This document shows, piece by piece, positions 1-27,286 of a DNA stretch of 64,000 nucleotides (positions are counted from its first letter, which is position 1; every line of letters begins with the position of its first letter). A program made the translations under genes and the position numbers. Origin of the DNA: a virus; IMG/VR virus record IMGVR_UViG_3300047455_000060, positions 4,123 to 68,122 of that record. One strand, given 5' to 3'. Under the pieces are notes generated by a model, which ran no database searches, was not told the origin of the DNA, and was given only the letters and a program-made list of their open reading frames with translations.

Positions 1-118
1 ATCCAAAGTTCATACAACGAAAGTTACAACCAAATGTACGTAGGAATACACTAGGTACACCTACATACTTGCCTTCGCCTTGTACACTATAAAATGCTTC
101 TGAATATCTTAGTTTCAT
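1..118 (-). CDS. queE: 7-carboxy-7-deazaguanine synthase QueE (radical SAM), N-terminal part; runs off the window edge
   Basis: Not in the ORF track. Manual translation from the ATG at 118 gives [39 protein letters not shown], with the typical QueE start (FxSxQGEG...FLRxxGCNxxC). Confidence 0.9.
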
Positions 119-468
119 TGTGTAAACTCCTGCTCTAACAGCTTAACTACGTCCTTAAAGTCTGATTCAGGAAATGCCATTCTGCCTAAATTAAACAGAC
201 GTCTTGTTAACACAGTATTTTCGTCTGTATATCCTTTTGAGTTATCAAGGCGTTCTACACTAATTGCAAATGGATGATGCTTGATGTAATTGAACTTTTC
301 GTTTAGTTCTAGTCCACTCCAGTAACATTTACCATTTTGTGTGTCAAACTTTTCAATTAGGCTGTCCGCTGTAAGTGTAATTTCTTTTACAGGTCGATTG
401 CTTACACGATTACGTCCTTGACTATAATTTACGTTAGCTAATAACTTTTTTGCAGTTTTAATATTCAT
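115..468 (-). CDS. HNH-like (His-Me finger) putative endonuclease
   Basis: CYWSG...[17 protein letters not shown]...N resembles the viral 'S-I-D-R-I-D-N-S-K-G-Y-x-x-x-N' HNH-like family. Confidence 0.5.
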
Positions 469-1151
469 CGCGGTGCAAACTCCTGCTGTAGTTTAATGTT
501 GTCAAAGAACTCTTTCTTAGTACCAGGGTCGCTTTTAAAGCTACCTTCGAGTACAGTTGTTTGCGTCAATGAACTATGTGCCATAATGCCACGATTCTCA
601 CAGCAACCGTGTGTTGCTTGAATATATACACCTACGTTGTGTGCGCCTGTTGCTGCTTTAATCTCACGTGCAATATCATTTGCAAGTTCTTCTTGCAGTG
701 TACCACGTCGAGCGCACCACTGTGCAATACGTGTGTACTTAGATAGTCCAATAAGTTTAGGACCTGCAATAATACCAATGTATGCTACACCACTCACTGG
801 CTGGTGATGATGCGAACACATTGAACGTAGCTCTGAACGTACAACAAGCATACCTTCATAACGATCATCACTATCATTAGGAAATGCAGTTGCATTTGGC
901 ATAGGATCATAACGTCCTGCCATAATCTCATTAAAGTACATTTTAGCAAGACGTCTTGCTGTGCCTTGTGAGTTAGGATCGTTATGTCGATCAATAACAA
1001 GTGCGTCTAGTACCTGTTCAAATGCTAGTGTAGCACCTTCAATAAGTTCTTCTTTATCGCCCTTTTGTAGGACTTCTGAAATATTGTCGCCAGCCCAGTA
1101 ACGGATACCAGCTTCTTCTAATTTTGTTTTAATTTGTAATGCTTTGCTCAT
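465..1151 (-). CDS. folE: GTP cyclohydrolase I
   Basis: SMCSHH, GLSKYTR, LQEEL and HGCCENRG motifs. Start moved to the ATG at 1151, which has a GGAG SD. Confidence 0.95.
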   Translation of the reverse strand: MSKALQIKTKLEEAGIRYWAGDNISEVLQKGDKEELIEGATLAFEQVLDALVIDRHNDPNSQGTARRLAKMYFNEIMAGRYDPMPNATAFPNDSDDRYEGMLVVRSELRSMCSHHHQPVSGVAYIGIIAGPKLIGLSKYTRIAQWCARRGTLQEELANDIAREIKAATGAHNVGVYIQATHGCCENRGIMAHSSLTQTTVLEGSFKSDPGTKKEFFDNIKLQQEFAPR

Positions 1152-1198
1152 TTTATCTCCGATGTTAAGGCAGAGGATTGCCATTCAATATACTAATA

Positions 1199-1227
1199 AG
1201 TATACACGTTTATTTAGGTTTTGTCAA
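1199..1227 (-). promoter_or_regulatory. sigma70-type promoter for folE-queE
   Basis: TTGACA-17nt-TATACT on the minus strand. Confidence 0.8.
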
Positions 1228-1233
1228 CCACTA

Positions 1234-1614
1234 TCAATATTTTTGTTTAGACGGAATAACGCCGCGAACGCCGCCTTTTGGATCTTCCATATCTCCGTCT
1301 CTACGGAAGATCAAATGTACGTGCGGATACATACAAGTTTGACCTGCACTAGTACCAATATTTAGACCTATATTATATCCTGTAATATTATTATTAGGAG
1401 ATGCTACATTATCATTGCCCATAGCAACAGCAAATTTAAAACACTTTAATACTTCGTCTTGATTACTAGTTTTAGGAACAATTAATGTATGTCCTTCAGT
1501 AACAGGAAATGCATCCTCATATACAACAAAATCTTTTGTATCAAGACTAATATTAGTCCACGGTGCTCGACCTTCTTGTTGGGCCTTTTCTAATGTATCA
1601 CAGTCTAAATTCAT
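1234..1614 (-). CDS. HIT family nucleotide hydrolase
   Basis: FPVTEGHTLIVPK, AGQT and YPHVHLI (histidine-triad variant). Confidence 0.9.
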   Translation of the reverse strand: MNLDCDTLEKAQQEGRAPWTNISLDTKDFVVYEDAFPVTEGHTLIVPKTSNQDEVLKCFKFAVAMGNDNVASPNNNITGYNIGLNIGTSAGQTCMYPHVHLIFRRDGDMEDPKGGVRGVIPSKQKY

Positions 1615-2131
1615 GATCTTTTTCTAATCTCTCGTAATAGTTAAAATTTATAAAAGTCCGTCTATCATCATCTGTACATTTTGTACCACTGTGTCGCAAG
1701 TTAGAATTGAATATAACTAATCTATTCTCTAGTGCTTTTACTTCAGGACCATCTTCAAAATGCAAACTTCCATTATTTGTGTTTAGGTAATATATTGCAG
1801 TTACACAATCTATAGTGTCTGTATGGTATCCTGTTTTAACAAGCTCGTCTGCACGAGGTGTTACTACTCCTTGTACTCTTATAAATGCTTTTGGCTGCAT
1901 AATTTCTAATAAAGGAGTTAAAAGTTCAAAGAAATTGCTTCGAATGTTAAATCCATGATAAAAGTTATGTGTTAATTTAAATCCTAAATTTAATTGATCT
2001 GTAGATGTATTTGCATATCCTTCGCTCATAAACCAAGGAAATTCGTCACTCCACATTACATTTCTCAAATATGTAAAATAGTCTAGATCTAATGCATCAT
2101 CTATAACTTTTATACTTTCATTTTTAAGCAT
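1598..2131 (-). CDS. 2OG-Fe(II) oxygenase
   Basis: HTD...AIYYLNTNNG...NRLVIF...H...R facial triad pattern. Confidence 0.8.
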   Translation of the reverse strand: MLKNESIKVIDDALDLDYFTYLRNVMWSDEFPWFMSEGYANTSTDQLNLGFKLTHNFYHGFNIRSNFFELLTPLLEIMQPKAFIRVQGVVTPRADELVKTGYHTDTIDCVTAIYYLNTNNGSLHFEDGPEVKALENRLVIFNSNLRHSGTKCTDDDRRTFINFNYYERLEKDHEFRL

Positions 2132-2684
2132 AGTTGCCTACATTCTCCCAAGGGTAAACTAGCCAAACATCTTCTTCTGCTTTGTTAACTTCGTGTACGC
2201 TGTAACGTACATCACCAAACGTGCTAGACAAGTTATCTGTAATAGTAGCAAAACGAACATTGTTGTGCCATACAGTATCCCATGCTTCTTTTTCGTTTGG
2301 CAAACAACTTGACTGCCAGTCTTGTTTAATCCAGTTAAACGTAGCACCTGTATCGTTAATATCGTCTACAATAAGAATGTTTTTACGTTTGTTTAGATCC
2401 CAACGACTTTTGTAAATTTCACGTTCTTCTTCTGTAACATATCCAAACGCATCTTCTGACATCCACAAATTACTTTCAGGACCCATTTCGTCATCACGTA
2501 AACTAACCTTTAATGCTTCGCCGCGAATGCCTAGCATATTACAAAGGATAGTAGCAGGAACATTGCCACCTTTGGTAATACCTACAATATAGTCTGGACG
2601 CCAATTATCTTTGTACATCTGTAGAGCGATGTTTACACAGGCATCTTCTACATCCTGCCAGCTGTAATAATGTTTCTTAATCAT
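2124..2684 (-). CDS. type I phosphoribosyltransferase (Gpt-like)
   Basis: IVGITKGG, ILIVDDINDTGAT PRPP-binding loop, WLVYPWE. Confidence 0.9.
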   Translation of the reverse strand: MIKKHYYSWQDVEDACVNIALQMYKDNWRPDYIVGITKGGNVPATILCNMLGIRGEALKVSLRDDEMGPESNLWMSEDAFGYVTEEEREIYKSRWDLNKRKNILIVDDINDTGATFNWIKQDWQSSCLPNEKEAWDTVWHNNVRFATITDNLSSTFGDVRYSVHEVNKAEEDVWLVYPWENVGNYA

Positions 2685-2863
2685 TTGCCTTCCTTTGAAT
2701 CTTTTTCTGCTTTAGTTAGTTTGTTATTCCAAGTATTGTTACTAATGCCAAGTTCGCTGGGCATAGGCTTAGTTTTGCCTACAGTAACTTCGCCGCCTTT
2801 TGCAAGAAACTCTGCAATTAGATCTGCATCGGTATTCTTCTTAGGCTGATGATTCATAGCCAT
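2681..2863 (-). CDS. small protein with SutA-like EFLAKGG motif
   Basis: LIAEFLAKGGEV; paralog at 36171-36347. Confidence 0.55.
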   Translation of the reverse strand: MAMNHQPKKNTDADLIAEFLAKGGEVTVGKTKPMPSELGISNNTWNNKLTKAEKDSKEGK

Positions 2864-3141
2864 TATCTCAGCAACTCCAAGTTTGCAATTTTACTAATCT
2901 TCTCACCGAAGTCATCATCCTTGTGGATAATGTAAGTGGTTGTGTCATTGCGATCAGTTTTACGATCGTAGCGTCTAAACTCCACAACCTGTCCGCCTAC
3001 AGCACTGAACACACGGAAGTTTAGGATAGGTTCGGCATCGCACATCTGTGCTTCTACATCGCGACTACTAGTAAGTTTCATACTAACTTCATTGTCGTAA
3101 TCGTTAATCCAGTTACGGAGTTTTCTTTTAAGCCATTTCAT
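2863..3141 (-). CDS. hypothetical phage protein
   Basis: Coupled ORF in operon, 92 aa. Confidence 0.7.
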   Translation of the reverse strand: MKWLKRKLRNWINDYDNEVSMKLTSSRDVEAQMCDAEPILNFRVFSAVGGQVVEFRRYDRKTDRNDTTTYIIHKDDDFGEKISKIANLELLR

Positions 3142-3430
3142 TTTGTACCAACATCCTTATCATATTATAGTTTTCTTTTGCTTTAGCAAATGCGGGAAAC
3201 TTTTCTGCCATCTCTTGTTCACGCAATTCTTGCTCCATTTTCTGCTTGGCCCATTCTACGACAGTTTTCAACTCAATGTCATCGACCCAAGCAGTTGTGT
3301 GTATAGTCACAAACATTGATCCATCGTAAACCTGTAACTGTCCGTTAATTGCTCGCACCTCGCCGACTACAGCACGTTCGTTGCCGTTACTAGTATACGG
3401 TACTTGAAAATTTGTGTGTACTGGTATCAT
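3128..3430 (-). CDS. hypothetical protein, (Y/F)PxLxK C-terminal helix family
   Basis: Coupled ORF; C-terminal EKFPAFAKAKENY. Confidence 0.7.
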   Translation of the reverse strand: MIPVHTNFQVPYTSNGNERAVVGEVRAINGQLQVYDGSMFVTIHTTAWVDDIELKTVVEWAKQKMEQELREQEMAEKFPAFAKAKENYNMIRMLVQNEMA

Positions 3431-3885
3431 TTTGATTCCTTAATCGCATCAAACGTTTTATACTTTGACAATGCTGCTTCGTATTCGTCTTTTATCTTTT
3501 TCAACTTAGGATACTTAGATTCCATATCCACGTCACGCTTTAATAATAACAGAGCATCACGCATTTCGTCAATCTCTTTCATAACGTCTCTGCCATTTAC
3601 TAGCAACGGAACATCAACACGCATACTACCATTCTCACCACCGTCGATAGTAATCTTAGCATCTGCAATACTTGTAGAGCTAATCGCTCCTATTCCTGTA
3701 TTTGTAGTAGTGATACTACCGCTTGCATATGTGTAGTTGTTAGGATTATAGTTCTGTGTACTATTAAAGATGGGAGTGTTGTTGCTGTTCATTTTTTGTT
3801 TTAACTCTTTTGACCATTTTTCTTTACGCTTCTTTTCCGCCGCTTCTCTTTCACGGATACGTTTTACGTAATCTTGTCTACTCGT
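3427..3885 (-). CDS. hypothetical protein; start uncertain (ACG at 3885, ATG at 3792 or ATG at 4026)
   Basis: C-terminal KYPKLKKIKDEYE. The track start overlaps the upstream gene by 149 nt. Confidence 0.6.
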   Translation of the reverse strand, partial: TSRQDYVKRIREREAAEKKRKEKWSKELKQKMNSNNTPIFNSTQNYNPNNYTYASGSITTTNTGIGAISSTSIADAKITIDGGENGSMRVDVPLLVNGRDVMKEIDEMRDALLLLKRDVDMESKYPKLKKIKDEYEAALSKYKTFDAIKESK

Positions 3886-4372
3886 CTTTTGCTCCACGGG
3901 CAAGGTACTGCTCGTTGTGGATCCAACGGTATCCTTCGAACTGTACCCAGCGGACGAATCCCCATTCTTTCTGTTTCTTCCCCATGAAGAAAAGGCTCCA
4001 GCAAGGGATTTCATTACCTTGTTCATCTTTCTCTAACTCCAACCAATGTAGGTCATTGGGCTTACGGATTCTAAAATGCCCAGGACCTCTCCAAACTCTA
4101 GTGCTGCCAACTACGTGTCCTTCTTTAGCAATAAGTGGTATATGTTCCCAATAACCACCTGCGATAATAAATGTAGCATAGCCCCACGGATGATCGTGTA
4201 GAGTAGGCTCGTCACTTTTTAGTACTTTATGCAGTGTGATATTAAAAGGAAAACGCTTTCTGTTCTTAAGAAATACGTAGTAGCGGATAAGATAAGGTTC
4301 TGTGCTATCACGTTCTGTGATTACTCGACGTCTGCCGAGCTTGTCCATAATCTTAGAAAGGAATGTCATCAT
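3878..4372 (-). CDS. cupin-fold protein
   Basis: LHDHPW...GGYWE...H cupin metal motif. Confidence 0.7.
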   Translation of the reverse strand: MMTFLSKIMDKLGRRRVITERDSTEPYLIRYYVFLKNRKRFPFNITLHKVLKSDEPTLHDHPWGYATFIIAGGYWEHIPLIAKEGHVVGSTRVWRGPGHFRIRKPNDLHWLELEKDEQGNEIPCWSLFFMGKKQKEWGFVRWVQFEGYRWIHNEQYLARGAKDE

Positions 4373-4721
4373 CTAGTTCACCTGCTTTCTTTTTGCCTTC
4401 GTAATCTTGTTGCACCATATCGTATACTGCTTTAAAGTTACGCCAAACTTTTTCTAGTGCTGGATACTCTTTACACATCTTTTCAATCTCATTCGGATTA
4501 ATACGTGTGTCTGATATATCATAATTCTTAAGCCAGTCAACACTGTTAGTGTCTATAGTAAATGTACCGTCATGAGATCCGCTGTAAACAACATCAGTTA
4601 TACTATCACCTGCCCAGTACGTTGTAGTTGTGTAGGTGTTGTCTAGGTTAATAGTAATATCGCCTGTGGTATCTAATATTTCATCTAAATTAATAGTATA
4701 TGTTTTATCATCTGGTTCCAT
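4353..4721 (-). CDS. hypothetical protein, Thr-rich N-terminus with YPALEK helix
   Basis: Start reassigned to the ATG at 4721 (GAGG SD). Confidence 0.7.
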   Translation of the reverse strand: MEPDDKTYTINLDEILDTTGDITINLDNTYTTTTYWAGDSITDVVYSGSHDGTFTIDTNSVDWLKNYDISDTRINPNEIEKMCKEYPALEKVWRNFKAVYDMVQQDYEGKKKAGELDDDIPF

Positions 4722-5805
4722 CTGCAATTGCCTCGTATAGCGCAGTTCCACTAAAGAATTCTTTGTTTAGTTTAGTGCGTTGCTTGTCTAAACTTACAAG
4801 ATAGTCATCATAGTTTTCCATATAGTCGCGAATCTTTTTAACAAGTTCTCCGCGATATGTAACATAACTACCCCAATCTTCTGTCCACTTGCCAGGATAC
4901 TTAAACTCAGACAGTGCCATTTCACAGTAACTTAGTCTGTCCGGAACCATAGGAATCGCATTAGTAATAGCACCTTCATACCAACTAATACCAAGTGTTT
5001 CTTGCAAGTTAGCACTAAACACTAGTTTAGCTTCACCTAGCAAGTTGTGGTACTCGTTCTTTGTAAGTTCACGTTCTTGACAAACTACAAACTCATATTC
5101 AGGAAGTTGTTCAGCAAGGTCACGGAAAATATCTACTTGTTTCTCTGGAGCAATACGATGCGGAAAGAGTATAATATCTTTCTTGTCCATACCACTGTAA
5201 GGAACAAGTGCATCCTTCAAATACTCCATAGGCCATCCAACACGTTTAAAACGATCGTCTTCGCCTGCAAGTACCTCTTGTGTCCAATCGTACAAGTAAG
5301 GATCGTCTTCCCATAATGTTTCTACAAACATTTCAATATGAAAGTCTGTAGCAAAGAAGTTATGATCATACACATGAAACATGCTCTTTTCAGCATGTCG
5401 TACCCAAGGTTTGTCGCCTATGAGCCTACCCAAGAAGTCATGAGGATCATAACTACCAGCATGCCATAAGCCACCGATTCGGATATCAACACCCAAGAGC
5501 TCAGCCATGTATTTAAGCTGGATAACAGTTGGGTTCCACGCATCCGTATATAGGAAATAATCTCCATTTTTAACTTCGCCTTTACAAAACATTTCACCGA
5601 TAGTTTCTAACTGCTTACTCTTGTAAACATTAGTACCACCAAAATTGAGAAACGCCCCAGGCGTAGTTGCCTGAGGAGTCTCGCCACCACTAATAACAAC
5701 TACATTGTCATTTGTAGCATGGCGCAGTTGTTTAGGCAAATGTTCTTTCCATTGCTTAGTATAACGTGTGTCTACTGCTTCAATATCGACAATGTAGATA
5801 GTCAT
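4708..5805 (-). CDS. GT-B fold glycosyltransferase
   Basis: FPHRIAPEKQ...QETLGISWYEG matches the GT4-like R...K / ExxGxxxxE signature. Confidence 0.8.
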   Translation of the reverse strand: MTIYIVDIEAVDTRYTKQWKEHLPKQLRHATNDNVVVISGGETPQATTPGAFLNFGGTNVYKSKQLETIGEMFCKGEVKNGDYFLYTDAWNPTVIQLKYMAELLGVDIRIGGLWHAGSYDPHDFLGRLIGDKPWVRHAEKSMFHVYDHNFFATDFHIEMFVETLWEDDPYLYDWTQEVLAGEDDRFKRVGWPMEYLKDALVPYSGMDKKDIILFPHRIAPEKQVDIFRDLAEQLPEYEFVVCQERELTKNEYHNLLGEAKLVFSANLQETLGISWYEGAITNAIPMVPDRLSYCEMALSEFKYPGKWTEDWGSYVTYRGELVKKIRDYMENYDDYLVSLDKQRTKLNKEFFSGTALYEAIADGTR

Positions 5806-6033
5806 TTAGTTACTCCGATTAAATTGTTTACGTGGTCTTTGTACAAAGTCACGGCCGCCGTTACGAGCCTTCGCCCGCATCCAACCTTGCCATTTTTTGT
5901 ACGCCTCCCAAGTTGGAGATCCGTCCTTGTAAAGGTCTGCTTCATCAAACACTTTACCTTCAAAGCGACAATAGTCGCGGAACTTGTCCAGATCGTCAAA
6001 TACTTTTTCTACTGGAGGAAAGTTGTAAGCCAT
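5806..6033 (-). CDS. hypothetical phage protein
   Basis: 75 aa ORF with SD, abutting both neighbours. Confidence 0.7.
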   Translation of the reverse strand: MAYNFPPVEKVFDDLDKFRDYCRFEGKVFDEADLYKDGSPTWEAYKKWQGWMRAKARNGGRDFVQRPRKQFNRSN

Positions 6034-6047
6034 ATTAAGTTTCTCTC

Positions 6048-6506
6048 TTATGCTTTTGGATAAAAAATAGAACAGCCATTTTCGTTGTCTTCAGCGACAC
6101 TAATCTCTACAAACCGGCCGGGATATTTTGTAGAAATTTCTTGATACAAATCATCTGCAATCATCTCACATGATTTGTAATCTAAATTGAGCACTTTAAA
6201 GTCGGACGAACTATTTCCGTTATAGAGTCTTTCCATCCATCGTTTGAATTGGATGAATTCGATATCTCTATCGTTGTGAAACACTTCGATGCGCACCCGG
6301 AAATGAAAGATATGACGATGAGGAACACCAAGGAACGACACATCATCCCACCCTCCAGTTGCTAACTTTGGGTCAGTATCTGCCCCAGGATATCTATGAA
6401 TACCTTCTTTATTAAAGGTTACCCAAATACTACGTTGTGCATTTTGCATTTTGTTATCTTCTTCTCTCATTCTACGTAACATATAATCATGGTATCGTTC
6501 TTGCAT
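6048..6506 (-). CDS. QueD-paralog T-fold protein, DpdL-like (putative CDG decarboxylase)
   Basis: LGVPHRHIF (LxxxHRHxF), SCEMIA and EDNENG T-fold motifs; lacks the QueD CxxxHGH; adjacent to the dpdA operon. Confidence 0.7.
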   Translation of the reverse strand: MQERYHDYMLRRMREEDNKMQNAQRSIWVTFNKEGIHRYPGADTDPKLATGGWDDVSFLGVPHRHIFHFRVRIEVFHNDRDIEFIQFKRWMERLYNGNSSSDFKVLNLDYKSCEMIADDLYQEISTKYPGRFVEISVAEDNENGCSIFYPKA

Positions 6507-6512
6507 GTATAT

Positions 6513-6541
6513 ATAATACTTTCTTTTGTTAAAGTTGTCAA
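6513..6541 (-). promoter_or_regulatory. sigma70-type promoter, probably leaderless mRNA
   Basis: TTGACA-17-TATTAT with the ATG 6 nt after the -10 box. Confidence 0.7.
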
Positions 6542-6547
6542 GTGTTT

Positions 6548-7261
6548 TTAGAACTGAAACACTTGAAAATATTCATTAGTTATCTGACGTTCTAACTCAC
6601 GTTGGTTTAATCGCCAGTGCCTAATGATAGGATTTTGCGGTGCAACATTAGCCCAAGCAGCTTGTCCACTAATACCAAAATCTTGATATTCATTACTTTC
6701 TACATCTAAGCCTATTAATGCTTGAGGAGCAATAAATCCAAAATCTTTTTTTAGATCTTTTAATGCAAAATCTAGGACAAATCCGTTGCATGTTACAGCC
6801 ATATGTGCATCGATTGCGCCGTTTTGTACCGGTTCTCCCGGACCTCTTTGATCTGCTACACCAAACTTAGTTGATTGTCCTTTCTCTTCATTTGCCCAAT
6901 AACAAATTAACTGTTTTGCTGAAGATTGAAATCCGTGTAATCTTAAAATTCTTCTCAACACACAGGACATTAATACACACTGGTCTCCATATCGTTCAAT
7001 AAATCCTAGATTTATAAATCTATAATATATTTCTTGAAACTGTGCAGGAAGTGTATCCGCAATAGATGTTTCAATTCCTAAACCATAATCTTCTGGATGT
7101 TTAAAATTAAAAGCAGTATTCCATCCATACCTTGCTAAGTGTTTTGCTGGATTATTAATAAAGTTATCATATTCACTTATTTTACGTTTAGGCTTAATAA
7201 TAACCTCAGCACCTTGGCTAACATCAAATGTTGAAGTAGTAAATATTTTTTCTCGGTTCAT
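6548..7261 (-). CDS. hypothetical protein with transglutaminase-like Cys-His-Asp motif
   Basis: GDQCVLMS...DAHMAV...VLDF. Confidence 0.5.
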   Translation of the reverse strand: MNREKIFTTSTFDVSQGAEVIIKPKRKISEYDNFINNPAKHLARYGWNTAFNFKHPEDYGLGIETSIADTLPAQFQEIYYRFINLGFIERYGDQCVLMSCVLRRILRLHGFQSSAKQLICYWANEEKGQSTKFGVADQRGPGEPVQNGAIDAHMAVTCNGFVLDFALKDLKKDFGFIAPQALIGLDVESNEYQDFGISGQAAWANVAPQNPIIRHWRLNQRELERQITNEYFQVFQF

Positions 7262-7788
7262 AGAATTTTATCACTTCCGTATTTGTTCCAATCCGTAAAT
7301 TTATTACGGTCCATTAGATCGTGTAAACTGTGACACCAAACACCTGGATTAGTTGCTTTAAAATCTTTATCATCAATTTTAAGCATAGTGTTATAGTTGT
7401 ACTGCTTGATGTAAGGCAACGGAATGCGAATCTGCGGAATAAAGTTATCTTTTTCAATCATACTGCTTTCTAGTAATGCTTCTGCATGACTTAGCGGAAT
7501 ATCTAGACTACATAACTTACCAGCAACCAAAAACGCTGTAATCATGTTGTCCCACTTTTCCCAAGCATCTGCATCTTGTGGAAAGTTAGTGCCTGGATTA
7601 AAACTATGATTAGCACCAAAGAAGATGTGGTCACATTGTTCTTCATCGTAATGCTTTTGAATAACATCACAAGGTTGTACGCCTGTAACAAACAATGTTT
7701 TCATTCCAAACGCAGGAGTCTTTTCAACTTCTATGCCTGTAAAGAAAACAATATTGTCTGCTGTGCCTGTTTCGTAATCACGCTTCAT
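7258..7788 (-). CDS. hypothetical protein in dpdA operon
   Basis: FFTGIEVEKTP...HIFFGANHSF...NPGVWCH; GenBank-style phage ORF, coupled to its neighbour. Confidence 0.7.
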   Translation of the reverse strand: MKRDYETGTADNIVFFTGIEVEKTPAFGMKTLFVTGVQPCDVIQKHYDEEQCDHIFFGANHSFNPGTNFPQDADAWEKWDNMITAFLVAGKLCSLDIPLSHAEALLESSMIEKDNFIPQIRIPLPYIKQYNYNTMLKIDDKDFKATNPGVWCHSLHDLMDRNKFTDWNKYGSDKIL

Positions 7789-7903
7789 TTCGCTCTACCT
7801 GTTTAGCAAGATCCGAAAATCTATCTGCAATTTCACGCAATTCTTTACTGTCTAGGCTACGAGCCAAATCGTGCAATCTAATTATAATTTCGCCGTTTGT
7901 CAT
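7778..7903 (-). CDS. small hypothetical protein (41 aa)
   Basis: Manual ORF MTNGEIIIRLHDLAR..., ATGA overlap with the upstream gene, fills the gap. Confidence 0.55.
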   Translation of the reverse strand: MTNGEIIIRLHDLARSLDSKELREIADRFSDLAKQVERNEA

Positions 7904-8109
7904 TCTAATCCTTTTTGTATCAGATATTCGTTAATACGATGCATTTCGTCTTTAAGATATAACTTCATAGTTTTCATTCTACGCACTTCTTCAGTTACTG
8001 TAATATTATTATAACGTGTTTCGATCTCTATGTCAAGTTCTCTGTGTTTACGTTCTAATTCCGCATAATGACTGCGAAGTTTGTCCTCTTCGGATTCAAA
8101 GTTGCTCAT
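7900..8109 (-). CDS. DUF465/YdcH-like coiled-coil protein
   Basis: LERKHRELDIEI...MKTMKLYLKDEM. Confidence 0.7.
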   Translation of the reverse strand: MSNFESEEDKLRSHYAELERKHRELDIEIETRYNNITVTEEVRRMKTMKLYLKDEMHRINEYLIQKGLE

Positions 8110-9655
8110 TTTCTAGATCCTCCAATTTGTGTTCTTGGTCTTCAGTAAATTCACCATCTTCTAGTTCTTCTACTTCTGGTTCAACAACGTCAAACAGTGC
8201 TCCAAAGTACGTACTAGAGTTTACAGTTTTTTTGCCAATGGCTCCGCGAGTGCCCGGAATTGACATCCAAAACTTAGAGTGTTTTTCGATTAAATCGTTT
8301 GCTTCGTCTCTTGTTTTTGCTGAAAATATTTCTTCAACAACATCTCGAAAAAAGACCCTGTCAAACCGCTCTTGTACAAGCATAGCTGGTACAATTCCTG
8401 CGTCATATTGTCTGTTGGCTTCTTGAACTGCATTAATGTGACTCCATACGTTATGGCCCATTTGAATAGCATAGCTGAAACTATCCCAGCTAGTCTTTCC
8501 TTCTTTGCCTATCTTATTTAAGTCTCCCGGCGCATAAACACATACATCACTGACTTTCATTTCTGCTGTAATAGGCGAGTCTTCAAAGTTTTTAAAGATA
8601 CCATCTTGTAATACTGCTTGTCTAAAAGTTCTAGTATCAGTCGAATACTTCTTGTCATCTATGCTTGGAACCATTCGATATGTAAACTTACCACGATCGG
8701 GCGTTTCGTTTTGAATGTAAATCTGTCCATTAGCAGTTGCTAGGAACGGACTTGCACAGTCAAATGTAAGCATCATAGTAGGGTTATAGTACTTGCGAAT
8801 AGCTCGTTGTAGGTCTGTTAACAAACAAGCCCACTCTAGCTTACTAGTACCCAAGAAGTGCATTACATCGTGTACACCGCTTTGTAGCAAGCCGTCATAG
8901 TGTAGTGATACAATACGCTTGAGCACTAAGTGTACGTCACACATATTCTGACCACCCATTGACCACCCATTAAAGTGATTGTCAGGATATAGATTAGGGT
9001 CGCAGTAGTCTTTCATCTGCTGATACCAATCTTCTGCGTCAGCGTGATTTTCACCTTGTAGAACGTTTAAGAACTTACAAGCACCTGTGCGATGCTTCAT
9101 CCAGTAGTCATTGTTAATGCGTGTCGCTTTAACTGCTTCATCGTATGTGCTAATGCCAGTTGCTTTCGCACCTTCAGGTGAACGAGCTACCCAGGCCGGA
9201 ATATCAAGAATCATTCCATAGTCCATATACGCATCCATCCAACGCAAAACGCCATCACGTTTCTTTTGCGCCTTAGGACAGTTAGGATCTTTCCAATCAC
9301 CTTCCCAAACACCCTTACCAATCTGGAAGCCTCCGCTATCGCCAAGCAACCAAGTGTTTTGTCTGTCTCTATTTCTTACCATGTCTTCTTTAGGTACAAT
9401 TTTAGTTGTATCTAAATCAGCATGTCCTGCAGAGTAAAGCGTCCACTTGTACGTGAATGCTCCTTCTTGCGCATTAAGATAATTAAGACTTTCTACACCA
9501 TTAGCAAAGTTAGCTGGGATACGAGCCGCTTCGATGTAAGGACCTTTGACAGGATCAGGAAAACGCTGCTTGCCTACATAAGTAGCATAGAAACCGCTTA
9601 GTGCAGGTAAGAAGTGTGCGTAATCGTTTTGTGATGCTGTTAGGTCTTTATTCAT
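8096..9655 (-). CDS. dpdA: TGT-fold DNA 7-deazaguanine transglycosylase (DpdA family)
   Basis: LGDSGGFQ, MILDIP, NVLQG, MHFLG, TFDCASP and a late HN motif; folE/queE context. Confidence 0.8.
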   Translation of the reverse strand: MNKDLTASQNDYAHFLPALSGFYATYVGKQRFPDPVKGPYIEAARIPANFANGVESLNYLNAQEGAFTYKWTLYSAGHADLDTTKIVPKEDMVRNRDRQNTWLLGDSGGFQIGKGVWEGDWKDPNCPKAQKKRDGVLRWMDAYMDYGMILDIPAWVARSPEGAKATGISTYDEAVKATRINNDYWMKHRTGACKFLNVLQGENHADAEDWYQQMKDYCDPNLYPDNHFNGWSMGGQNMCDVHLVLKRIVSLHYDGLLQSGVHDVMHFLGTSKLEWACLLTDLQRAIRKYYNPTMMLTFDCASPFLATANGQIYIQNETPDRGKFTYRMVPSIDDKKYSTDTRTFRQAVLQDGIFKNFEDSPITAEMKVSDVCVYAPGDLNKIGKEGKTSWDSFSYAIQMGHNVWSHINAVQEANRQYDAGIVPAMLVQERFDRVFFRDVVEEIFSAKTRDEANDLIEKHSKFWMSIPGTRGAIGKKTVNSSTYFGALFDVVEPEVEELEDGEFTEDQEHKLEDLENEQL

Positions 9656-9656
9656 A

Positions 9657-10385
9657 TTACTTGCTCTGCGCTGGTAAGATGTAATCGTATTTTACCATGC
9701 CGCTGTCAATGCTAATTTGCATTGCACCTTGATCTGAGATGCTCATAGTAGCGTCACCGTCTAAGTTCAAAATAGCTTGTACTTGTGCAACAGGCCAACT
9801 CCAAGTGTGTGTAAGTGTGCCGTCAACACCATGCTGGAAAACAAACTCACCTGCGTGTGTACTTGCATCACCGAAACTAAACACAAGATTACCGTCTTTA
9901 GTTTTAACATTGAATGTTGGCTCTTCGCTATGTGCAGCACTCATCAGTTTCATACGTGCAATTGATGCCATGCTTGGTTGAAAAGTAACAGACCATGTAG
10001 CACCTTTAAACTTAACAGTCTTCAACTTTTCTTCAATGATTGCTTTGTTCATAAAGCGATAATCGTTCTCAAAGTCGCCTGCTGCATTTTCAAAGTGAAT
10101 GTGTGTTGGAATAGTCTCGCCATTCCGTTCTGCCTGTACAACATCAATCTTTGCATTGTCTTTGTATTCAGGATTTTTTAAGTGCAACGCAAGTTTGTCT
10201 AGGTTAGGCATACCAAACGTACCTACGAATTCGCTAACAGCATTATGTGTATTTGCATTCATAATAACTGAGCGGTCCTCGGCCATTGCATCAATTGTAG
10301 TGCTACCGTCGTTCGTTACTTTTACTAAGCTAAGAAAGCCTAGTGCATGTGTATGAGCGACTACGTCTTGTAAGATGTCTTTCAT
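9657..10385 (-). CDS. putative DNA polymerase sliding clamp (gp45/PCNA-like)
   Basis: 242 aa with an alternating beta/alpha pattern ending YDYILPA; PolB and a clamp loader are in the window. Confidence 0.55.
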   Translation of the reverse strand: MKDILQDVVAHTHALGFLSLVKVTNDGSTTIDAMAEDRSVIMNANTHNAVSEFVGTFGMPNLDKLALHLKNPEYKDNAKIDVVQAERNGETIPTHIHFENAAGDFENDYRFMNKAIIEEKLKTVKFKGATWSVTFQPSMASIARMKLMSAAHSEEPTFNVKTKDGNLVFSFGDASTHAGEFVFQHGVDGTLTHTWSWPVAQVQAILNLDGDATMSISDQGAMQISIDSGMVKYDYILPAQSK

Positions 10386-11170
10386 TATATTGTTTCTCCG
10401 TTGAATAAGTTTATTATATTGTCTAAGTTGTTGTTTGTCAAGAACTTTTCTACAGTATATTTAGGTTTAAATCCAAGTGCCTTCATTTTTTCTGTGTTAG
10501 CACAAGTCCATTCTCGCTCTCCAGGGGTATTTAGACGAACCGGAAGATCCGGAACTAAGTCTTGGATCCTGACAGGATTCCCCGTACCAATATCGACTAC
10601 ACCTCTAACGTGTGTAGCCTTTATTAATATTTCAATTGCATCTAGTACATCTTCCAGATGAATGAAATCTCTATGGTGTCTAGTAGCATATTCTAATGTA
10701 CCATTGCGTAGTTTGTTAAAGAACATATTTTCTCTAGGGCAACTATCCGAGTATACTGTATGAAAACGCATACCTACATGATCCGTACCGTAGCGTTCAG
10801 CAAGCTCTTCCATAATGAACTTAGACGCCGCATAAGGGTTCAAATCGGGCTCGTATGCGCTCGAACTGCTCGCATATAGTATACGTGTATTAGGATAGCG
10901 TTCAAACAGTCTACGGGTTACTTCTACATTGTTATTCCAATAACCTGCTGGATCATTTAGACTTTCACGTACACCTGATTTGCCTGCTAAGTGTATAATT
11001 AAATCAAATTCTTCTTTAAAATCACAATGTAACAAATCTTGTGAATTGTTTAATTGGTCTCTATCCCAACCGTCTTTTAAATCAATACCAATTACTTGAT
11101 TATTCTTTTGCAATCGTTTTAATAGGGCTGAGCCTATAAAGCCTCTATGCCCTGTTAATAAAATTTTCAT
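10385..11170 (-). CDS. NAD-dependent epimerase/dehydratase
   Basis: TGHRGFIG Rossmann motif, ASSSS, YAASK, RDFIH. Confidence 0.9.
   Translation of the reverse strand: MKILLTGHRGFIGSALLKRLQKNNQVIGIDLKDGWDRDQLNNSQDLLHCDFKEEFDLIIHLAGKSGVRESLNDPAGYWNNNVEVTRRLFERYPNTRILYASSSSAYEPDLNPYAASKFIMEELAERYGTDHVGMRFHTVYSDSCPRENMFFNKLRNGTLEYATRHHRDFIHLEDVLDAIEILIKATHVRGVVDIGTGNPVRIQDLVPDLPVRLNTPGEREWTCANTEKMKALGFKPKYTVEKFLTNNNLDNIINLFNGETI
10413..10441 (-). promoter_or_regulatory. consensus sigma70 promoter driving the clamp-dpdA operon
   Basis: Perfect TTGACA-17-TATAAT inside the 3' end of the epimerase gene. Confidence 0.85.
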
Positions 11171-11874
11171 GCTGCTATTCCTTGTTCTTGGAATATTTGC
11201 AAATACTCCATTGTGTTCTTCCAGTTATCAACTTTTCTAAAATGTTTTACTACATTTGCTATAGGAAGATCATTACCGCCTTCATAGATAGCATCACCAA
11301 AGAACCAAGTAGTATCTTCTTTGTCAAAGTCTTTTATGATTTGACTCTTGTCAAAACCTTTAGGGCTAATATCAATACCTGTTTCGCCGCCAACTTTTGC
11401 TTCTAAGTCAGGAAACATTGTATTAAATGCAGATGCAATTATATTACGTTCATCGGAAAGCTCGTCGTGAACAACATAATCTTCTCGTTCTTCTTTGTTA
11501 GCATTGCGACCTACTATACTGAAGTTTATCATCCCTGGACGATGTTCAAAATGTAACCCTGTACGTACTCTATATGTACTTGAAGTTAGTTGAACAGATA
11601 GCCATTCGTGTGCATCTTCAGGAATGATCCAGTTATTAGTTCGAAGGTTTACATCCCTTTCCCAAACATCATTTCCGTTGCATTGATAAACACGTTTACA
11701 TAAGTTGTAGGTCGGCTCACTAATCTGTTTAACAGTCTTTGCTTTGTCACTACCTGTAACTAGATAAACGTCATTCATTAAACAAAAAGAATTAAAGAAT
11801 GCTTTAAAGTTAGGATCAATTATACCCCTGCTAGGAGTTAGTGTACCGTCTACATCAAATATAAATTTATTCAT
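11167..11874 (-). CDS. HAD-IIB phosphomannomutase-like protein (eukaryote-type PMM family)
   Basis: FDVDGTLT, VTGSD, GMINFSIVGR, GGETGIDI, FFGD..GGND. Confidence 0.85.
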   Translation of the reverse strand: MNKFIFDVDGTLTPSRGIIDPNFKAFFNSFCLMNDVYLVTGSDKAKTVKQISEPTYNLCKRVYQCNGNDVWERDVNLRTNNWIIPEDAHEWLSVQLTSSTYRVRTGLHFEHRPGMINFSIVGRNANKEEREDYVVHDELSDERNIIASAFNTMFPDLEAKVGGETGIDISPKGFDKSQIIKDFDKEDTTWFFGDAIYEGGNDLPIANVVKHFRKVDNWKNTMEYLQIFQEQGIAA

Positions 11875-12040
11875 CTGTTCCTTCGCACCATGCTGTTTCG
11901 CCTTGTGTAAATTCTGAAGTTACTTTATACCATTCAGCAAAACACTCTTGTTTAGTTTCGTAACGTCCGTATTCGGTTACACGAGGTTCTATAGTATCAT
12001 CTGTTGCAAATACCATGCTAACAATAAGCAGTGTCCACAT
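11867..12040 (-). CDS. small secreted/membrane hypothetical protein
   Basis: MWTLLIVS hydrophobic start with GGAG SD. Confidence 0.55.
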   Translation of the reverse strand: MWTLLIVSMVFATDDTIEPRVTEYGRYETKQECFAEWYKVTSEFTQGETAWCEGTDE

Positions 12041-12180
12041 TAGGAATTCTCCTTGATCCACGTACATTCTGAAACGTCTTCAGGCGTATCGTACATTCGT
12101 TTACACTGTTCGTAAGGATGAAAGTACATTGCTACTGCCCATCCTGCGATAAATGCTATTGCTAGATAAAAATATTTCAT
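12040..12180 (-). CDS. small membrane protein (46 aa)
   Basis: Manual ORF MKYFYLAIAFIAGWAVAMYF... Confidence 0.55.
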   Translation of the reverse strand: MKYFYLAIAFIAGWAVAMYFHPYEQCKRMYDTPEDVSECTWIKENS

Positions 12181-12181
12181 C

Positions 12182-12361
12182 TCAACGTTCCACTAATGGT
12201 GTTGAACTTTGGCTGTCGTGGTAATCACCACTTGCGTAATAATCGCGCACTGCACTTTCTTTAATCATCATACCGTTCTTCATACGATAGGATACAATCT
12301 CACGACGAACTACGCCGTCTGTATCTGCATCAAATGCGTTTTTAAATGGACCTTCAGTCAT
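12182..12361 (-). CDS. small hypothetical protein (59 aa)
   Basis: Manual ORF MTEGPFKNAFDADTDGVVRREIV..., fills the operon gap. Confidence 0.6.
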   Translation of the reverse strand: MTEGPFKNAFDADTDGVVRREIVSYRMKNGMMIKESAVRDYYASGDYHDSQSSTPLVER

Positions 12362-12773
12362 TGCTTTGCCTTTCTGCTACACGCTTTCTCAAATCACTTG
12401 AGCTAAAGCGATGGTCTCTCTTGTTGAAGTATAGATCAATGTCACGTTTGCGGCAAATGTCTTTGCCTGTGAACTCTTTGTCTCTATACTCCTCTCCTAA
12501 TATTCTAACATCAATATGATACATTGTCAAGATATCTTCTAGATCTTTTTCGGTACCATACGGAATTATTTCGTCTACGTATCCAACTGCTTTGAGTTGT
12601 GTGTAACGCTCCACAACAGTTTGTATAGGAGCGTTCTTTTCTGCACGATCAACGCTAGGATCTACTTGTAATGCGCAGATCAAATAATCACATTGTTCTT
12701 TTGCTTCACGTAACATTTGTACATGTCCAGCATGTAATAAATCAAATGTGCTACAAGTAAATCCTACTTTCAT
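12354..12773 (-). CDS. glycerol-3-phosphate cytidylyltransferase-like (TagD family)
   Basis: FDLLHAGH HxGH motif, ER...VDEI, FSSSDLR. Confidence 0.9.
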   Translation of the reverse strand: MKVGFTCSTFDLLHAGHVQMLREAKEQCDYLICALQVDPSVDRAEKNAPIQTVVERYTQLKAVGYVDEIIPYGTEKDLEDILTMYHIDVRILGEEYRDKEFTGKDICRKRDIDLYFNKRDHRFSSSDLRKRVAERQSND

Positions 12774-12880
12774 TCCTGCATCCTCGCTGCTAACTCTTTC
12801 AACATTTCAATCAACTCTTCAATAGTATTTAGATCGTGTTCGTTCTGTGTGTCAATTTCTACTTCTACTTTTATTTTCAT
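12770..12880 (-). CDS. small hypothetical protein (36 aa)
   Basis: Manual ORF MKIKVEVEIDTQNEHDL... Confidence 0.5.
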   Translation of the reverse strand: MKIKVEVEIDTQNEHDLNTIEELIEMLKELAARMQE

Positions 12881-12885
12881 ACATT

Positions 12886-15558: not shown

Positions 15559-15622
15559 TTAATCTCCTTGTTGCTTCTGGCCAACTAACCGTCTACATAC
15601 CACTAGGGCGTATATAATATAT

Positions 15623-15651
15623 ATTATATGACAAATTCTTGTATTAGTCAA
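15623..15651 (-). promoter_or_regulatory. sigma70-type promoter for PolB
   Basis: TTGACT-17-TATAAT. Confidence 0.8.
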
Positions 15652-15662
15652 CTACTATTTTC

Positions 15663-27216: not shown

Positions 27217-27258
27217 TCTTCTTCCTTAGTGTTTATAATAAGTTCGGTAACACTTTAT

Positions 27259-27286
27259 ATTATACATTGTTTTCTGTTATTGTCAA
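27259..27286 (-). promoter_or_regulatory. sigma70-type promoter for clpA
   Basis: TTGACA-16-TATAAT. Confidence 0.75.

Follow-up and report, generated by a model that had tools for sequence, protein, structure and literature searches.

The question raised by this locus is whether a phage gene cluster for placing 7-deazaguanine in DNA, in which a glycosyltransferase (GT) gene is embedded, could direct the formation of a sugar-bearing base. The window analysed (64,000 nucleotides) covers most of a phage contig of 68 kb with a CheckV completeness of 19%, and all genes of the locus lie on its minus strand. The fragment comes from an uncultured giant phage with genes that would replace guanine in its DNA by 7-deazaguanine, and the gene set seen in the original prediction is confirmed. 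Its interpretation was supported in part: the GT very probably belongs to the module, while glycosylation of the base is something that we infer.

Genes for the proposed making and insertion of 7-deazaguanine

The genes and sites concerned are the following.

1-118, minus strand, 5' end of queE (39 codons); the whole 298-aa gene, at contig positions 3344-4240, continues beyond the window
465-1184, minus strand, folE, GTP cyclohydrolase I (PF01227, 6.5e-38)
1227-1199, minus strand, promoter-like site by folE (consensus scan)
6048-6506, minus strand, dpdL homologue, a QueD paralogue with LxxxHRHxF (phrog_17812, 2.7e-30)
6513-6541, minus strand, sigma70-like promoter candidate, TTGACA-17-TATTAT (11/12 matches)
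7258-7788, minus strand, 176-aa protein of no assigned family (in 76/80 relatives)
8096-9655, minus strand, long DpdA-like TGT-fold transglycosylase by structure model (519 aa), residues 481-491 resembling a clamp-binding motif
9657-10385, minus strand, sliding clamp, homologue of the Phosso 'sliding clamp' gene
10441-10413, minus strand, promoter-like site near the clamp gene (12/12 matches)
57798-58385, minus strand, queD, PTPS family (PF01242, 4.2e-16), 50 kb from the other module genes

FolE, QueD and QueE belong to families for which the route from GTP to 7-carboxy-7-deazaguanine (CDG) is established chemistry. The QueE product gave no Pfam match at E<=0.01 and NCBIfam QueE matches below cut-off (best 8.1e-12), and it is homologous to annotated phage QueEs, with 38% identity to that of Synechococcus phage BUCT-ZZ01 (2.9e-67). 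folE was found at 58 of 80 relatives' loci. QueD carries CxxxHGY and not CxxxHGH, as do the aligned QueDs of phiST, ACP17, RHph_I1_18 and BUCT-ZZ01. The reported absence of queC and queF holds over the whole 68-kb contig, in which neither protein was matched; since this is about one fifth (~19%) of the genome, QueC or other tailoring genes may sit elsewhere. None of the six complete GT-bearing genomes had a QueC match over the cut-off, and a 256-kb relative encodes a PP-loop ATPase with a QueC-like tail (15 bits).

From its sequence, the 6048-6506 product is proposed to be a T-fold QueD paralogue and putative CDG decarboxylase. Its motif (L59-G-V-P-H63-R-H65-I-F67) accompanies 50% identity to the ACP17 protein and ~30% to phiST CGPG_00067, and the gene is present at 79 of the 80 close relatives' loci. 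Decarboxylation of CDG by DpdL is itself a proposal and not a demonstrated activity in the available text of PMC10516641. The 176-aa protein, which had no Pfam, PHROG, NCBIfam or Atlas match, is 28% identical to the ACP17 ORF directly upstream of dpdA; both this lineage and ACP17 have it together with the module.

The 8096-9655 product had no Pfam, PHROG, NCBIfam or PDB sequence match. The top matches of its AlphaFold model (pLDDT 85, pTM 0.87) were all in the TGT superfamily (ArcTGT, Z 17.2; TGT, 16.5; QTRT2, 16.4; DpdA 7ui4, 15.0; Cap10, 14.9), followed by a generic barrel at Z 11.3. Foldseek gave 5.6e-7, hhalign against the ACP17-type DpdA gave 90% (1.6e-6), and D106-S-G-G-F-Q111 and D299 were invariant across 60 sequences. 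The gene directly adjoins that of the clamp, 1 base from its end, beside PolB, and an FNSLFD-type motif is common to the DpdA-like protein and the polymerase C-terminus. The predicted complex with the clamp scored 0.76 against 0.02 for the best of three controls, at a mark passed by 58/80 solved complexes and 2/110 mismatched pairs; as the alignments were built for this analysis and clamp-peptide complexes have already been solved, this score may owe something to resemblance to structures already known. Contact agreement between runs was at least 67% and partner pLDDT at least 48. The clamp is a predicted docking partner, and because it carries a clamp motif the TGT-fold protein looks DNA-directed; on these models the polymerase-like motif favours DNA as its substrate.

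The glycosyltransferase and its gene neighbourhoods

The GT and the genes that could be connected with its function are these.

4708-5805, minus strand, GT4-like GT-B glycosyltransferase by structure model, candidate base-glycosylating enzyme
5806-6033, minus strand, 75-aa basic ORF between dpdL and the GT gene (in 72/80 relatives)
10385-12773, minus strand, span of three possible sugar-donor genes, not module-specific
10385-11170, minus strand, NAD epimerase, possible sugar donor
11167-11874, minus strand, eukaryotic-type phosphomannomutase (PMM), possible sugar donor
12354-12773, minus strand, RfaE-II-like nucleotidyltransferase, possible sugar donor

The GT had no Pfam, PHROG or NCBIfam match. 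Its model (pLDDT 95.4) matched sucrose-phosphate synthase at Z 26.3 and BshA at 24.1, and E269-x7-E277, R217 and K222 were invariant across six lineages. As first described, it lies two genes downstream of dpdL; the 75-aa ORF in between (of which no homologue was found among other lineages) is separated from its neighbours by 14 and 0 bases, and a promoter-like site lies just upstream of dpdL; this site is a consensus match only, the total of such sites not exceeding that in shuffled sequences.

The GT was also expected to co-occur with dpdA and dpdL in other phages, and it does, adjoining DpdL and/or DpdA in six cultured lineages (PA5oct, DpdA-GT-DpdL; ACP17, DpdA-GT-DpdL-QueE with overlapping genes; Phosso, DpdL-GT; X1, GT-DpdA-DpdL-QueE; BUCT-ZZ01, GT-DpdA-DpdL-GT; and BCSR5) and, for divergent GTs from IMG/VR, at 8 of 13 loci. 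By tblastn the GT matched 22 of 50,697 phage records, 17 of which also have DpdL. The profile of the short DpdA3 matched 6/6 DpdL lineages without the GT and 0/6 GT-bearing cultured lineages, the lineages compared not being fully independent samples, and neither the contig nor any locus of the 80 relatives or the 13 divergent GTs gave a match to it. Given this co-occurrence and the DNA-directed look of the TGT-fold protein, the GT is very probably part of the deazaguanine module.

Concerning a sugar donor, marine phages widely carry the nucleotidyltransferase (134 records) and the epimerase (245), the two genes searched for; no module phage was among the best 40 of the 134 or the best 40 of the 245 matches.

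Proposed pathway and known systems

We give roughly 55% to the reading that this is a module for 7-deazaguanine modification of DNA that does without QueC and has a sugar step added. FolE, QueD and QueE would convert GTP to CDG, which DpdL, following the literature proposal, would convert to 7-deazaguanine. The 519-aa DpdA-like enzyme would dock on the sliding clamp through its polymerase-like C-terminal motif and put the deazapurine in the place of guanine in freshly synthesised phage DNA. The GT, presumably transcribed with dpdL, would then transfer a sugar from an NDP-sugar to the deazapurine base, most likely after base insertion, as in T4 with hydroxymethylcytosine, or alternatively on the free base. 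The PRTase described below would most simply recycle displaced guanine to GMP, thereby feeding FolE. The acceptor could be the exocyclic N2, with a natural-product precedent in huimycin, where the sugar is reportedly placed on the 2-amino group, or, more boldly, the electron-rich C7; as 7-deazaguanine has no hydroxyl, the acceptor atom is a guess.

No description of glycosylated 7-deazaguanine in DNA was found in the literature. The T4 alpha- and beta-glucosyltransferases add sugar to hydroxymethylcytosine in DNA, which serves nuclease evasion, and this offers a parallel for GT-B sugar addition to a non-canonical phage DNA base. T4 AGT (1y6f) aligns with the GT at Z 18.3, but it is only 37th in the structural ranking, well below GT4 small-molecule enzymes, and its acceptor is a pyrimidine hydroxymethyl, a hydroxymethylase not being seen in the window. 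Mannosyl- and galactosyl-queuosine in animal tRNA carry a sugar on a 7-deazaguanine derivative in nucleic acid, but this is RNA and the sugar is on the queuosine cyclopentenediol hydroxyl, beyond the reach of the window's pathway. Likened by description only, HuiG of huimycin biosynthesis is a GT-B enzyme that glycosylates a preQ0-derived 7-deazapurine base, its substrate being, in the available text, an O-methylated free base from natural-product biosynthesis in an actinomycete (bioRxiv 10.64898/2026.04.15.718813).

The DpdL/DpdA3 system of Cellulophaga phage phiST, for which the available text reports 100% dDG (Cui, Hutinet et al. 2023, PMC10516641), resembles the window in having FolE, QueD (CxxxHGY), QueE, DpdL with LxxxHRHxF, a PRTase in the genome and no QueC. 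It differs in its 259-aa DpdA3 and lack of a GT, whereas the window encodes the GT4-like enzyme and, from a different subfamily, a DpdA of 519 aa with a clamp motif. In favour of the reading with a sugar step, ACP17 dpdL and dpdA expressed in E. coli without the GT yielded no dDG according to that same text (PMC10516641). The Pseudomonas jumbo phage PA5oct (Wroclawvirus) is syntenic with the window over PolB, clamp, DpdA-like protein (33% identity), GT (43%), DpdL (58%), QueE and RNase H. Its DNA resists cutting at G-containing restriction sites, and the portions available describe a 'hypermodified G' whose structure is unknown (PMC12191111; bioRxiv 10.64898/2026.09.21.753257).

Competing readings and accessory genes

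An unlikely reading, though one to be taken seriously, is that the module yields simply 2'-deoxy-7-deazaguanosine, or some other deazapurine with no sugar, and that the GT has another acceptor (a host glycan, a protein or some other DNA base), being there only through clustering of early DNA-metabolism genes. A GT-only clade, nested among DpdL-linked GTs (support 95/94), occurs in small ~33-kb phages, of which one 33-kb record (CheckV 97% complete) is without DpdL, FolE and ACP17-type DpdA, and distant homologues in PhiXhv-15 lie in a sugar-gene cluster with no deazaguanine genes in view. Members of the GT family can thus function outside this pathway, and the clade counts against an obligatory link. 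The missing acceptor hydroxyl and the nearest solved structures, which act on small molecules and glycans, point the same way. However, adjacency of the GT is kept though the surrounding gene order differs between lineages, its gene often sits between dpdA and dpdL, stop codons overlapping with start codons, the DpdA type tracks GT presence perfectly, and no alternative base-modification pathway was seen near the GT in the window, where the ThyA-family gene (33298-34185) matches thymidylate synthase at 348.6 bits.

The remaining genes of the locus are listed here.

1234-1614, minus strand, HIT-family nucleotide hydrolase or transferase (PF01230, 30.3 bits against 21.5)
1598-2131, minus strand, 2OG oxygenase, borderline (27.5 bits against 27)
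2124-2684, minus strand, type I PRTase, XGPRT-like (PF00156, 4.9e-11; 42.6 bits, cut-off 26.3)
3878-4372, minus strand, 'cupin', by PHROG label only (phrog_4786)

Among the genes originally listed, queE, folE, the TGT-fold and LxxxHRHxF proteins, the GT-B, the PRTase and the HIT gene were upheld, while the oxygenase is borderline and the cupin a label. As module components the extras fared unevenly: the PRTase is conserved (74/80 relatives), whereas the oxygenase, like a 237-aa ORF and an HNH gene, is in 0/80, and the HIT (47/80) and cupin-like (48/80) genes are confined to this lineage, no HIT being seen in other lineages' clusters and neither having a homologue in the 19-kb PA5oct stretch compared. 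The PRTase may be either a guanine salvage enzyme or a 7-deazapurine PRTase.

In the latter case, a tubercidin- or toyocamycin-like route can be envisaged, which we consider improbable: the PRTase would couple PRPP with CDG or DG, DpdL and HIT/MazG-type enzymes would process the nucleotide, and a polymerase would incorporate the deaza-dGTP, leaving the TGT-fold enzyme secondary. The idea stays in play because the PRTase, conserved here, is elsewhere almost confined to DpdL phages (6 of 8 matches in 50,697 records), with one homologue inside a QueE-PRT-x-QueD-FolE operon; the phiST cluster also holds MazG and a kinase-like AAA_18 gene. Tubercidin clusters likewise combine a QueC-less FolE/QueD/QueE pathway to CDG, a PF00156 PRTase and a decarboxylase, but in the text available this is UbiD and there is no DpdA (bioRxiv 10.64898/2026.04.15.718813). 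Against this route, tblastn found no PRTase homologue in PA5oct, ACP17, Phosso, X1 or BCSR5, DpdA accompanies DpdL in every DpdL lineage, and the best family match, xanthine/guanine PRTase (NF006613, 5.3e-11, below cut-off), fits salvage of displaced guanine equally well.

It is more doubtful still that the GT acts on a free 7-deazapurine to give a soluble huimycin- or dapiramicin-like compound directed against the host and not DNA. The HuiG precedent (bioRxiv 10.64898/2026.04.15.718813, as far as its text is available) and the closeness of the fold to pteridine glucosyltransferase 5zer (Z 21.0) would suit this, but the GT in these clusters is always accompanied by DpdA, here with a clamp motif, and in the available accounts nuclease resistance resides in PA5oct DNA itself (PMC12191111; bioRxiv 10.64898/2026.09.21.753257). 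That the TGT-fold protein modifies tRNA in a queuosine- or archaeosine-like way, as part of an auxiliary translation module, is very improbable. The best structural matches are tRNA enzymes (Z 16.4-17.2 against 15.0 for DpdA), though tied within ~2 units, whereas the gene abuts that of the clamp, with PolB alongside, its product has the polymerase's clamp motif, and the homologous PA5oct module goes with modified G in DNA in the available text of PMC12191111.

If the favoured reading of a deazaguanine module with a sugar step is true, a sugar-bearing purine is predicted in the DNA of these phages, a prediction open to test in relatives in culture, Pseudomonas phage PA5oct among them, and the product would protect phage DNA from restriction and CRISPR nucleases.

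Gene set and linkage of the glycosyltransferase

The gene content of the 7-deazaguanine locus in the original prediction was confirmed, with FolE, HIT, the phosphoribosyltransferase (PRTase) and QueD all scoring over their Pfam thresholds. The queE gene, predicted to be cut by the window edge, was found whole in the contig, encoding 298 aa. No curated QueE model matched this protein over its cut-off (no Pfam match, and five NCBIfam QueE models far below cut-off); its homology to annotated phage QueEs points to QueE. The contig, a record of 68,122 bases of which the window spans 4123-68122, is classed in IMG/VR as a linear fragment and is 19% complete by CheckV; it gave no match to QueC or QueF models. 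Every gene in window 1-16,000 is on the minus strand, and the genes considered here are as follows.

1-118, minus strand, 5' end of queE
115-468, minus strand, HNH-type endonuclease gene between folE and queE
465-1184, minus strand, folE
1234-1614, minus strand, HIT gene
1598-2131, minus strand, 2OG oxygenase gene
2124-2684, minus strand, PRTase gene
4708-5805, minus strand, GT-B glycosyltransferase (GT) gene
6048-6506, minus strand, dpdL (QueD paralogue)
6548-7261, minus strand, ORF of 237 aa
7258-7788, minus strand, ORF of 176 aa
8096-9655, minus strand, dpdA-like gene (519 aa)
9657-10385, minus strand, sliding clamp gene
12886-15558, minus strand, DNA polymerase gene
57798-58385, minus strand, queD

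The DpdA-like, GT and DpdL proteins had no Pfam or NCBIfam match and were therefore examined by other means; in PHROGs only DpdL matched, to a family of unknown function. Searching PDB sequences with phmmer gave nothing meaningful for any of the three, and a profile of the DpdA-like family had no match there either.

Co-occurrence of the GT with dpdA and dpdL across phages had been set beforehand as a check on the prediction, and it was found. By tblastn against 50,697 phage records, a DpdL homologue was present in 28, a GT homologue in 22 and both in 17. The Pseudomonas jumbo phage PA5oct shares with the window the order PolB, sliding clamp, long TGT-like gene, GT and DpdL, QueE and RNase H. 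Megablast with window 1-10000 as query found no matching phage.

Gene order around the GT in other phages
PA5oct: DpdA-like, GT (EST35_0317) and DpdL consecutive (annotated neighbourhood)
ACP17: FolE, small ORF, DpdA, GT, DpdL, QueE, with overlapping ends (annotated neighbourhood)
Phosso: DpdL overlaps GT (annotated neighbourhood)
X1: GT, DpdA, DpdL, QueE (annotated neighbourhood)
BCSR5: DpdL, four genes, GT, 446-aa gene, QueE (annotated neighbourhood)
BUCT-ZZ01 (Synechococcus phage), 3581-11040: QueE, PRTase, 118-aa ORF, QueD, FolE, GT (447 aa), DpdA, DpdL, GT (388 aa), exonuclease

The second GT of BUCT-ZZ01 scored too low for the tblastn threshold and came from a local search; two GTs in this compact operon suggest a disaccharide.

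The same linkage was seen in metagenomic phages. In the IMG/VR loci of 80 close GT relatives, many of them cut by contig ends, DpdL was found in 79, a DpdA-like gene in 73 and the PRTase in 74. Two divergent GT representatives were sampled to leave the close family, and 13 loci were obtained. In eight of these the gene immediately upstream of the GT is DpdL, and a DpdA and FolE are also present; one is cut upstream and has a DpdA; the other four, forming one clade, are without DpdL, DpdA and FolE. The predicted linkage of the GT to the module is therefore supported, and glycosylation of the base, the second part of that interpretation, would be its hypothetical function. We consider the GT to be probably a working part of the deazaguanine module.

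The model of the 365-aa GT (pLDDT 95.4) has a GT-B fold with two Rossmann-like domains, and the nearest structures are retaining GT4 enzymes (6kih, Z 26.3, rmsd 3.2, 320 residues aligned; BshA, Z 24.1; PimA, Z 21.8). E269 and E277 (E-x7-E), R217 and K222 show no variation among 6 lineages; across 61 GT sequences E277 is invariant and E269, R217 and K222 are each at least 90% conserved. The E-x7-E pair with the Arg and Lys is presumably the GT4-type donor site. As the Glycos_transf_1 and Glyco_transf_4 Pfam models did not match the window GT at E<=0.01, it is filed as GT4-like by fold and not as a member of the Pfam family; the BUCT-ZZ01 homologue barely reaches PF00534 (26.5 against 26.4 bits).

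The GT family is not tied by necessity to the deazaguanine pathway. This is because a GT-only clade of small phages (L105-L108), whose GTs are 37-39% identical to that of the window, is nested among the DpdL-linked GTs in the tree (support 95/94), and because more distant homologues lie in a GlmS/deacetylase sugar cluster. In the L105 record (33 kb, 97% complete), DpdL, FolE and an ACP17-type DpdA were looked for and none of the three was found.

The DpdA-like protein and the sliding clamp

The predicted structure of the 519-aa protein (pLDDT 85) has the TGT-type (beta/alpha)8 barrel expected of a DpdA. Its five best VIA-align matches all belong to the TGT superfamily (Z 14.9-17.2), followed by unrelated barrels at 11.3 or below. 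One TGT-superfamily structure, the solved DNA preQ0 insertase DpdA (7ui4), was matched with Z 15.0, rmsd 4.7 and 309 residues aligned, and Foldseek gave 5.6e-7 with TM 0.41/0.55. D106, S107, G109 and Q111 of a DSGGFQ motif and D299 of an FDC motif are the same in all 60 homologues compared, which share 35-41% identity with the window protein; we take the Asp of each motif to be the catalytic residues of TGT. Exchange of guanine in DNA for a 7-deazaguanine by this protein is a prediction, for which the clamp-type motif and predicted clamp complex described next, and the resistance of PA5oct DNA to G-site enzymes (PMC12191111), are indirect evidence.

On the question of whether the substrate is DNA or tRNA, an FxxLFD-type motif is common to the DpdA-like protein (residues 481-491) and the C-terminus of the DNA polymerase. 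TFNSLFDFGD forms the end of the polymerase; the corresponding stretch reads YFGALFDV (484-491) in the DpdA-like protein and SFNSLFDV in its PA5oct counterpart, and this clamp-type motif is conserved across the DpdA-like family. A complex predicted between the clamp and DpdA residues 462-519 scored 0.76, against 0.02 for the best of 3 controls, a level attained by 58 of 80 complexes of solved structure and by 2 of 110 mismatched pairs; since our own alignments were used and clamp-peptide complexes have already been solved, it indicates likeness to a known kind of docking and not proof of binding. The runs agreed in at least 67% of contacts with a partner pLDDT of at least 48, and the predicted contacts are residues 481-491 and 493. 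In addition, the dpdA-like gene starts 1 base after the clamp gene, under a promoter-like site with 12/12 matches. The predicted docking and the gene position favour a replisome-linked DNA enzyme, and the shared motif suggests that base exchange could be coupled to replication. The isoelectric point was rejected as a marker of DNA binding, as it did not separate GTs (4.9-6.7), DpdAs (5.2-6.4) and PolB (5.6).

The sigma70-type sites near the module, a class of promoter-like site whose total count is not above that of shuffles, are as follows.

10441-10413, minus strand, 12/12, just upstream of the clamp start
8036-8008, minus strand, 12/12, inside a 69-aa ORF and about 220 bases upstream of the 176-aa gene
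6541-6513, minus strand, 11/12, just upstream of the dpdL start
1227-1199, minus strand, 11/12, just upstream of the folE start

The type of inserting enzyme differs with the presence of the GT. A short DpdA3 is found in all six GT-less DpdL lineages (the phiST group, MA9V-3, D479, RHph_I1_18, Ahp1 and Bakedbeans), GT absence in five of these genomes coming from a GT profile search run without a positive control, plus tblastn. The DpdA3 profile found no DpdA3 in 6/6 cultured GT-bearing lineages and was likewise without a match in this contig, in the loci of the 80 relatives and in the 13 divergent ones, part of this absence coming from a search without an internal control; the same profile matched 4 of 5 in a companion search. 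In the GT-bearing lineages the DpdA is long. Two or more kinds occur, that of the window phage, PA5oct and Phosso and that of ACP17, X1 and BUCT-ZZ01, and hhalign relates these two with 90% probability (E 1.6e-6, 170 columns). The DNA of phiST is described as 100% dDG, the deoxynucleoside of 7-deazaguanine (DG), with [M+H]+ at 267.109 (PMC10516641). The GT thus occurs together with another type of inserting enzyme, which would be expected if these lineages handled another base or handled it in another way.

DpdL and the neighbouring genes

The 152-aa DpdL carries L59-GVP-H63-R-H65-I-F67, that is LxxxHRHxF in place of CxxxHGH, and LxxxHRHxF is the signature of DpdL (PMC10516641). The ACP17 protein that Cui and co-workers named DpdL (PMC10516641) shares 50% identity with it (tblastn, 6e-33), and phiST CGPG_00067 shares 27.7% by tblastn (8e-7) or 30.5% by blastp against a small database (8.7e-12). 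The context is that of a DpdL, with FolE, QueD, QueE and a DpdA present and QueC absent from the incomplete contig. The activity of DpdL as a decarboxylase of 7-carboxy-7-deazaguanine (CDG) is a proposal of Cui, Hutinet et al. 2023 (PMC10516641). QueC over cut-off was absent from 6/6 complete GT-bearing genomes, which places the branch point of all these pathways at CDG. In an alignment of five phage QueDs (window 57798-58385; L003, L087, L088 and L091), each has CxxxHGY instead of the bacterial CxxxHGH.

Two candidates among these genes were set aside. A weak QueC-like match in relatives proved to be a PP-loop ATPase flanked by two radical-SAM genes, off this contig. In a 256-kb relative (L096 970-1713) this is a 247-aa protein with SGGPDS, about 24 kb from the GT and beyond the end of our contig, whose weakly QueC-like C-terminus scores 22.2 bits as protein against a cut-off of 22, and 15 bits in six-frame translation; it could be another tailoring system of the phage group. 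The longer DpdL ORF of MA9V-3 (L094 8437-9321, 294 aa) was discarded as a functional clue, since DpdL occupies only its C-terminal part and the N-terminal remainder is similar to the HNH endonuclease of the window. The ORF probably represents a homing endonuclease that either is fused with dpdL or continues into it by read-through. The Bakedbeans protein has an N-terminal part too, to which no family was assigned.

The PRTase matches PF00156 with 42.6 bits against a gathering score of 26.3, and its best family match is xanthine-guanine PRTase. Homologues were found in 8 phage records, 5 in the phiST group and 1 in BUCT-ZZ01, inside the operon, with weak homologues in 2 of the 13 divergent loci. 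The simplest role for this enzyme would be recycling of the guanine released by exchange to GMP, and hence GTP for FolE. By analogy with tubercidin, in which a PRTase and a decarboxylase act on CDG (bioRxiv 10.64898/2026.04.15.718813), the PRTase may alternatively act on CDG or DG. In phiST (L091 21601-25706 and 4219-4647), a kinase-like AAA_18 gene (CGPG_00066) lies between DpdA3 and DpdL, MazG adjoins DpdL, and the PRTase is near ribonucleotide reductase; the AAA_18, MazG and PRTase genes hint at nucleotide-level steps in a plain dDG pathway.

The HIT gene (47/80 relatives) and a cupin-like gene (48/80) are both confined to this lineage. The 176-aa protein, found in 76/80 relatives and also in ACP17 just upstream of dpdA, had no family or Atlas match. 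The 2OG oxygenase, which the original prediction had counted in the gene set, passes its Pfam threshold, but only just, and is in none of the 80 relatives' loci; the 237-aa ORF and the HNH gene are each likewise in 0/80. These three were rejected as pathway members and look like recent insertions into the module.

Upstream of the clamp, at window 10385-12773, there are genes for an NAD epimerase, a eukaryotic-type phosphomannomutase and an RfaE-domain-II-like nucleotidyltransferase, which could together make an NDP-sugar; the best model for the epimerase is ADP-heptose 6-epimerase, below cut-off. Counterparts in the Vibrio phages phiKT1024, Va1 and pv27 share 85% identity with the nucleotidyltransferase, which hints at the host or at gene exchange. 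Searches with the nucleotidyltransferase and the epimerase matched 134 and 245 records, respectively. These homologues are common among cyanophages and vibriophages of the sea and occur in a pelagiphage; no phage with the module is among the 40 matches listed for each. A dedicated donor pathway was therefore rejected as part of the module, and these genes are at most an optional donor supply. Further cargo at window 24982-28118, 32084-34185 and 44741-56476 consists of a 744-aa ClpB-like AAA+ protein adjoining DnaJ, then PhoH, thymidylate synthase, a 2991-aa ORF and a UvdE UV endonuclease.

A candidate sugar-bearing 7-deazaguanine

For the whole mechanism as proposed, a deazaguanine module with a sugar step, we estimate a probability of roughly 0.55. 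The fuller statement, which we hold at even odds, is that this phage group together with PA5oct, ACP17, Phosso, X1 and BUCT-ZZ01 would replace guanine with a sugar-bearing 7-deazaguanine, by means of a clamp-riding long DpdA and a GT4-like enzyme and perhaps through an unusual N- or C-glycosidic bond. As 7-deazaguanine has no hydroxyl, the linkage would be N- or C-glycosidic or on a further-modified group.

To our knowledge, the 7-deazaguanine bases of DNA carry small groups only. Glycosylated 7-deazaguanine in DNA was not described in the literature searched, most subscription journals and supplements lying outside its scope, and the DNA sugar modifications described there are all on pyrimidines. 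Outside DNA, a glycosyltransferase acts on a 7-deazapurine base in huimycin (bioRxiv 10.64898/2026.04.15.718813). The dpdL and dpdA genes of phiST, and those of ACP17, are described as giving no dDG in E. coli, other enzymes possibly being needed, and neither 'glycosyl' nor 'phosphoribosyl' occurs in the main text of that paper (PMC10516641). The DNA of PA5oct is described as resisting G-site enzymes (PMC12191111), and as strongly resistant to every nuclease tried, with G 'hyper-modified' (bioRxiv 10.64898/2026.09.21.753257).

If the proposal is true, a glycosylated purine would be known from DNA for the first time, adding a new class to the natural bases of DNA. Such a base would account for the 'hypermodified G' of PA5oct and its resistance to every nuclease tested, the failure of ACP17 dpdA and dpdL alone in E. 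coli, and what END-type and glycosylase defences sense. A clamp-tethered DpdA would give a mechanism for replication-coupled base replacement, and the GT-only clade of small phages would hint that the GT is also able to decorate a host-supplied or ordinary purine.

Close relatives of the window phage are very common in metagenomes. The homologue search gave at least 8000 scored GT candidates, all with E <= 0.001, and identity to the window GT was 79-88% in the best 120 of these; no fewer than 588 IMG/VR stretches encode a GT relative, and the largest of the contigs concerned is 256 kb long and 72% complete. The GT family is thus abundant, and the prediction of a sugar-bearing 7-deazaguanine concerns cultured phages too.
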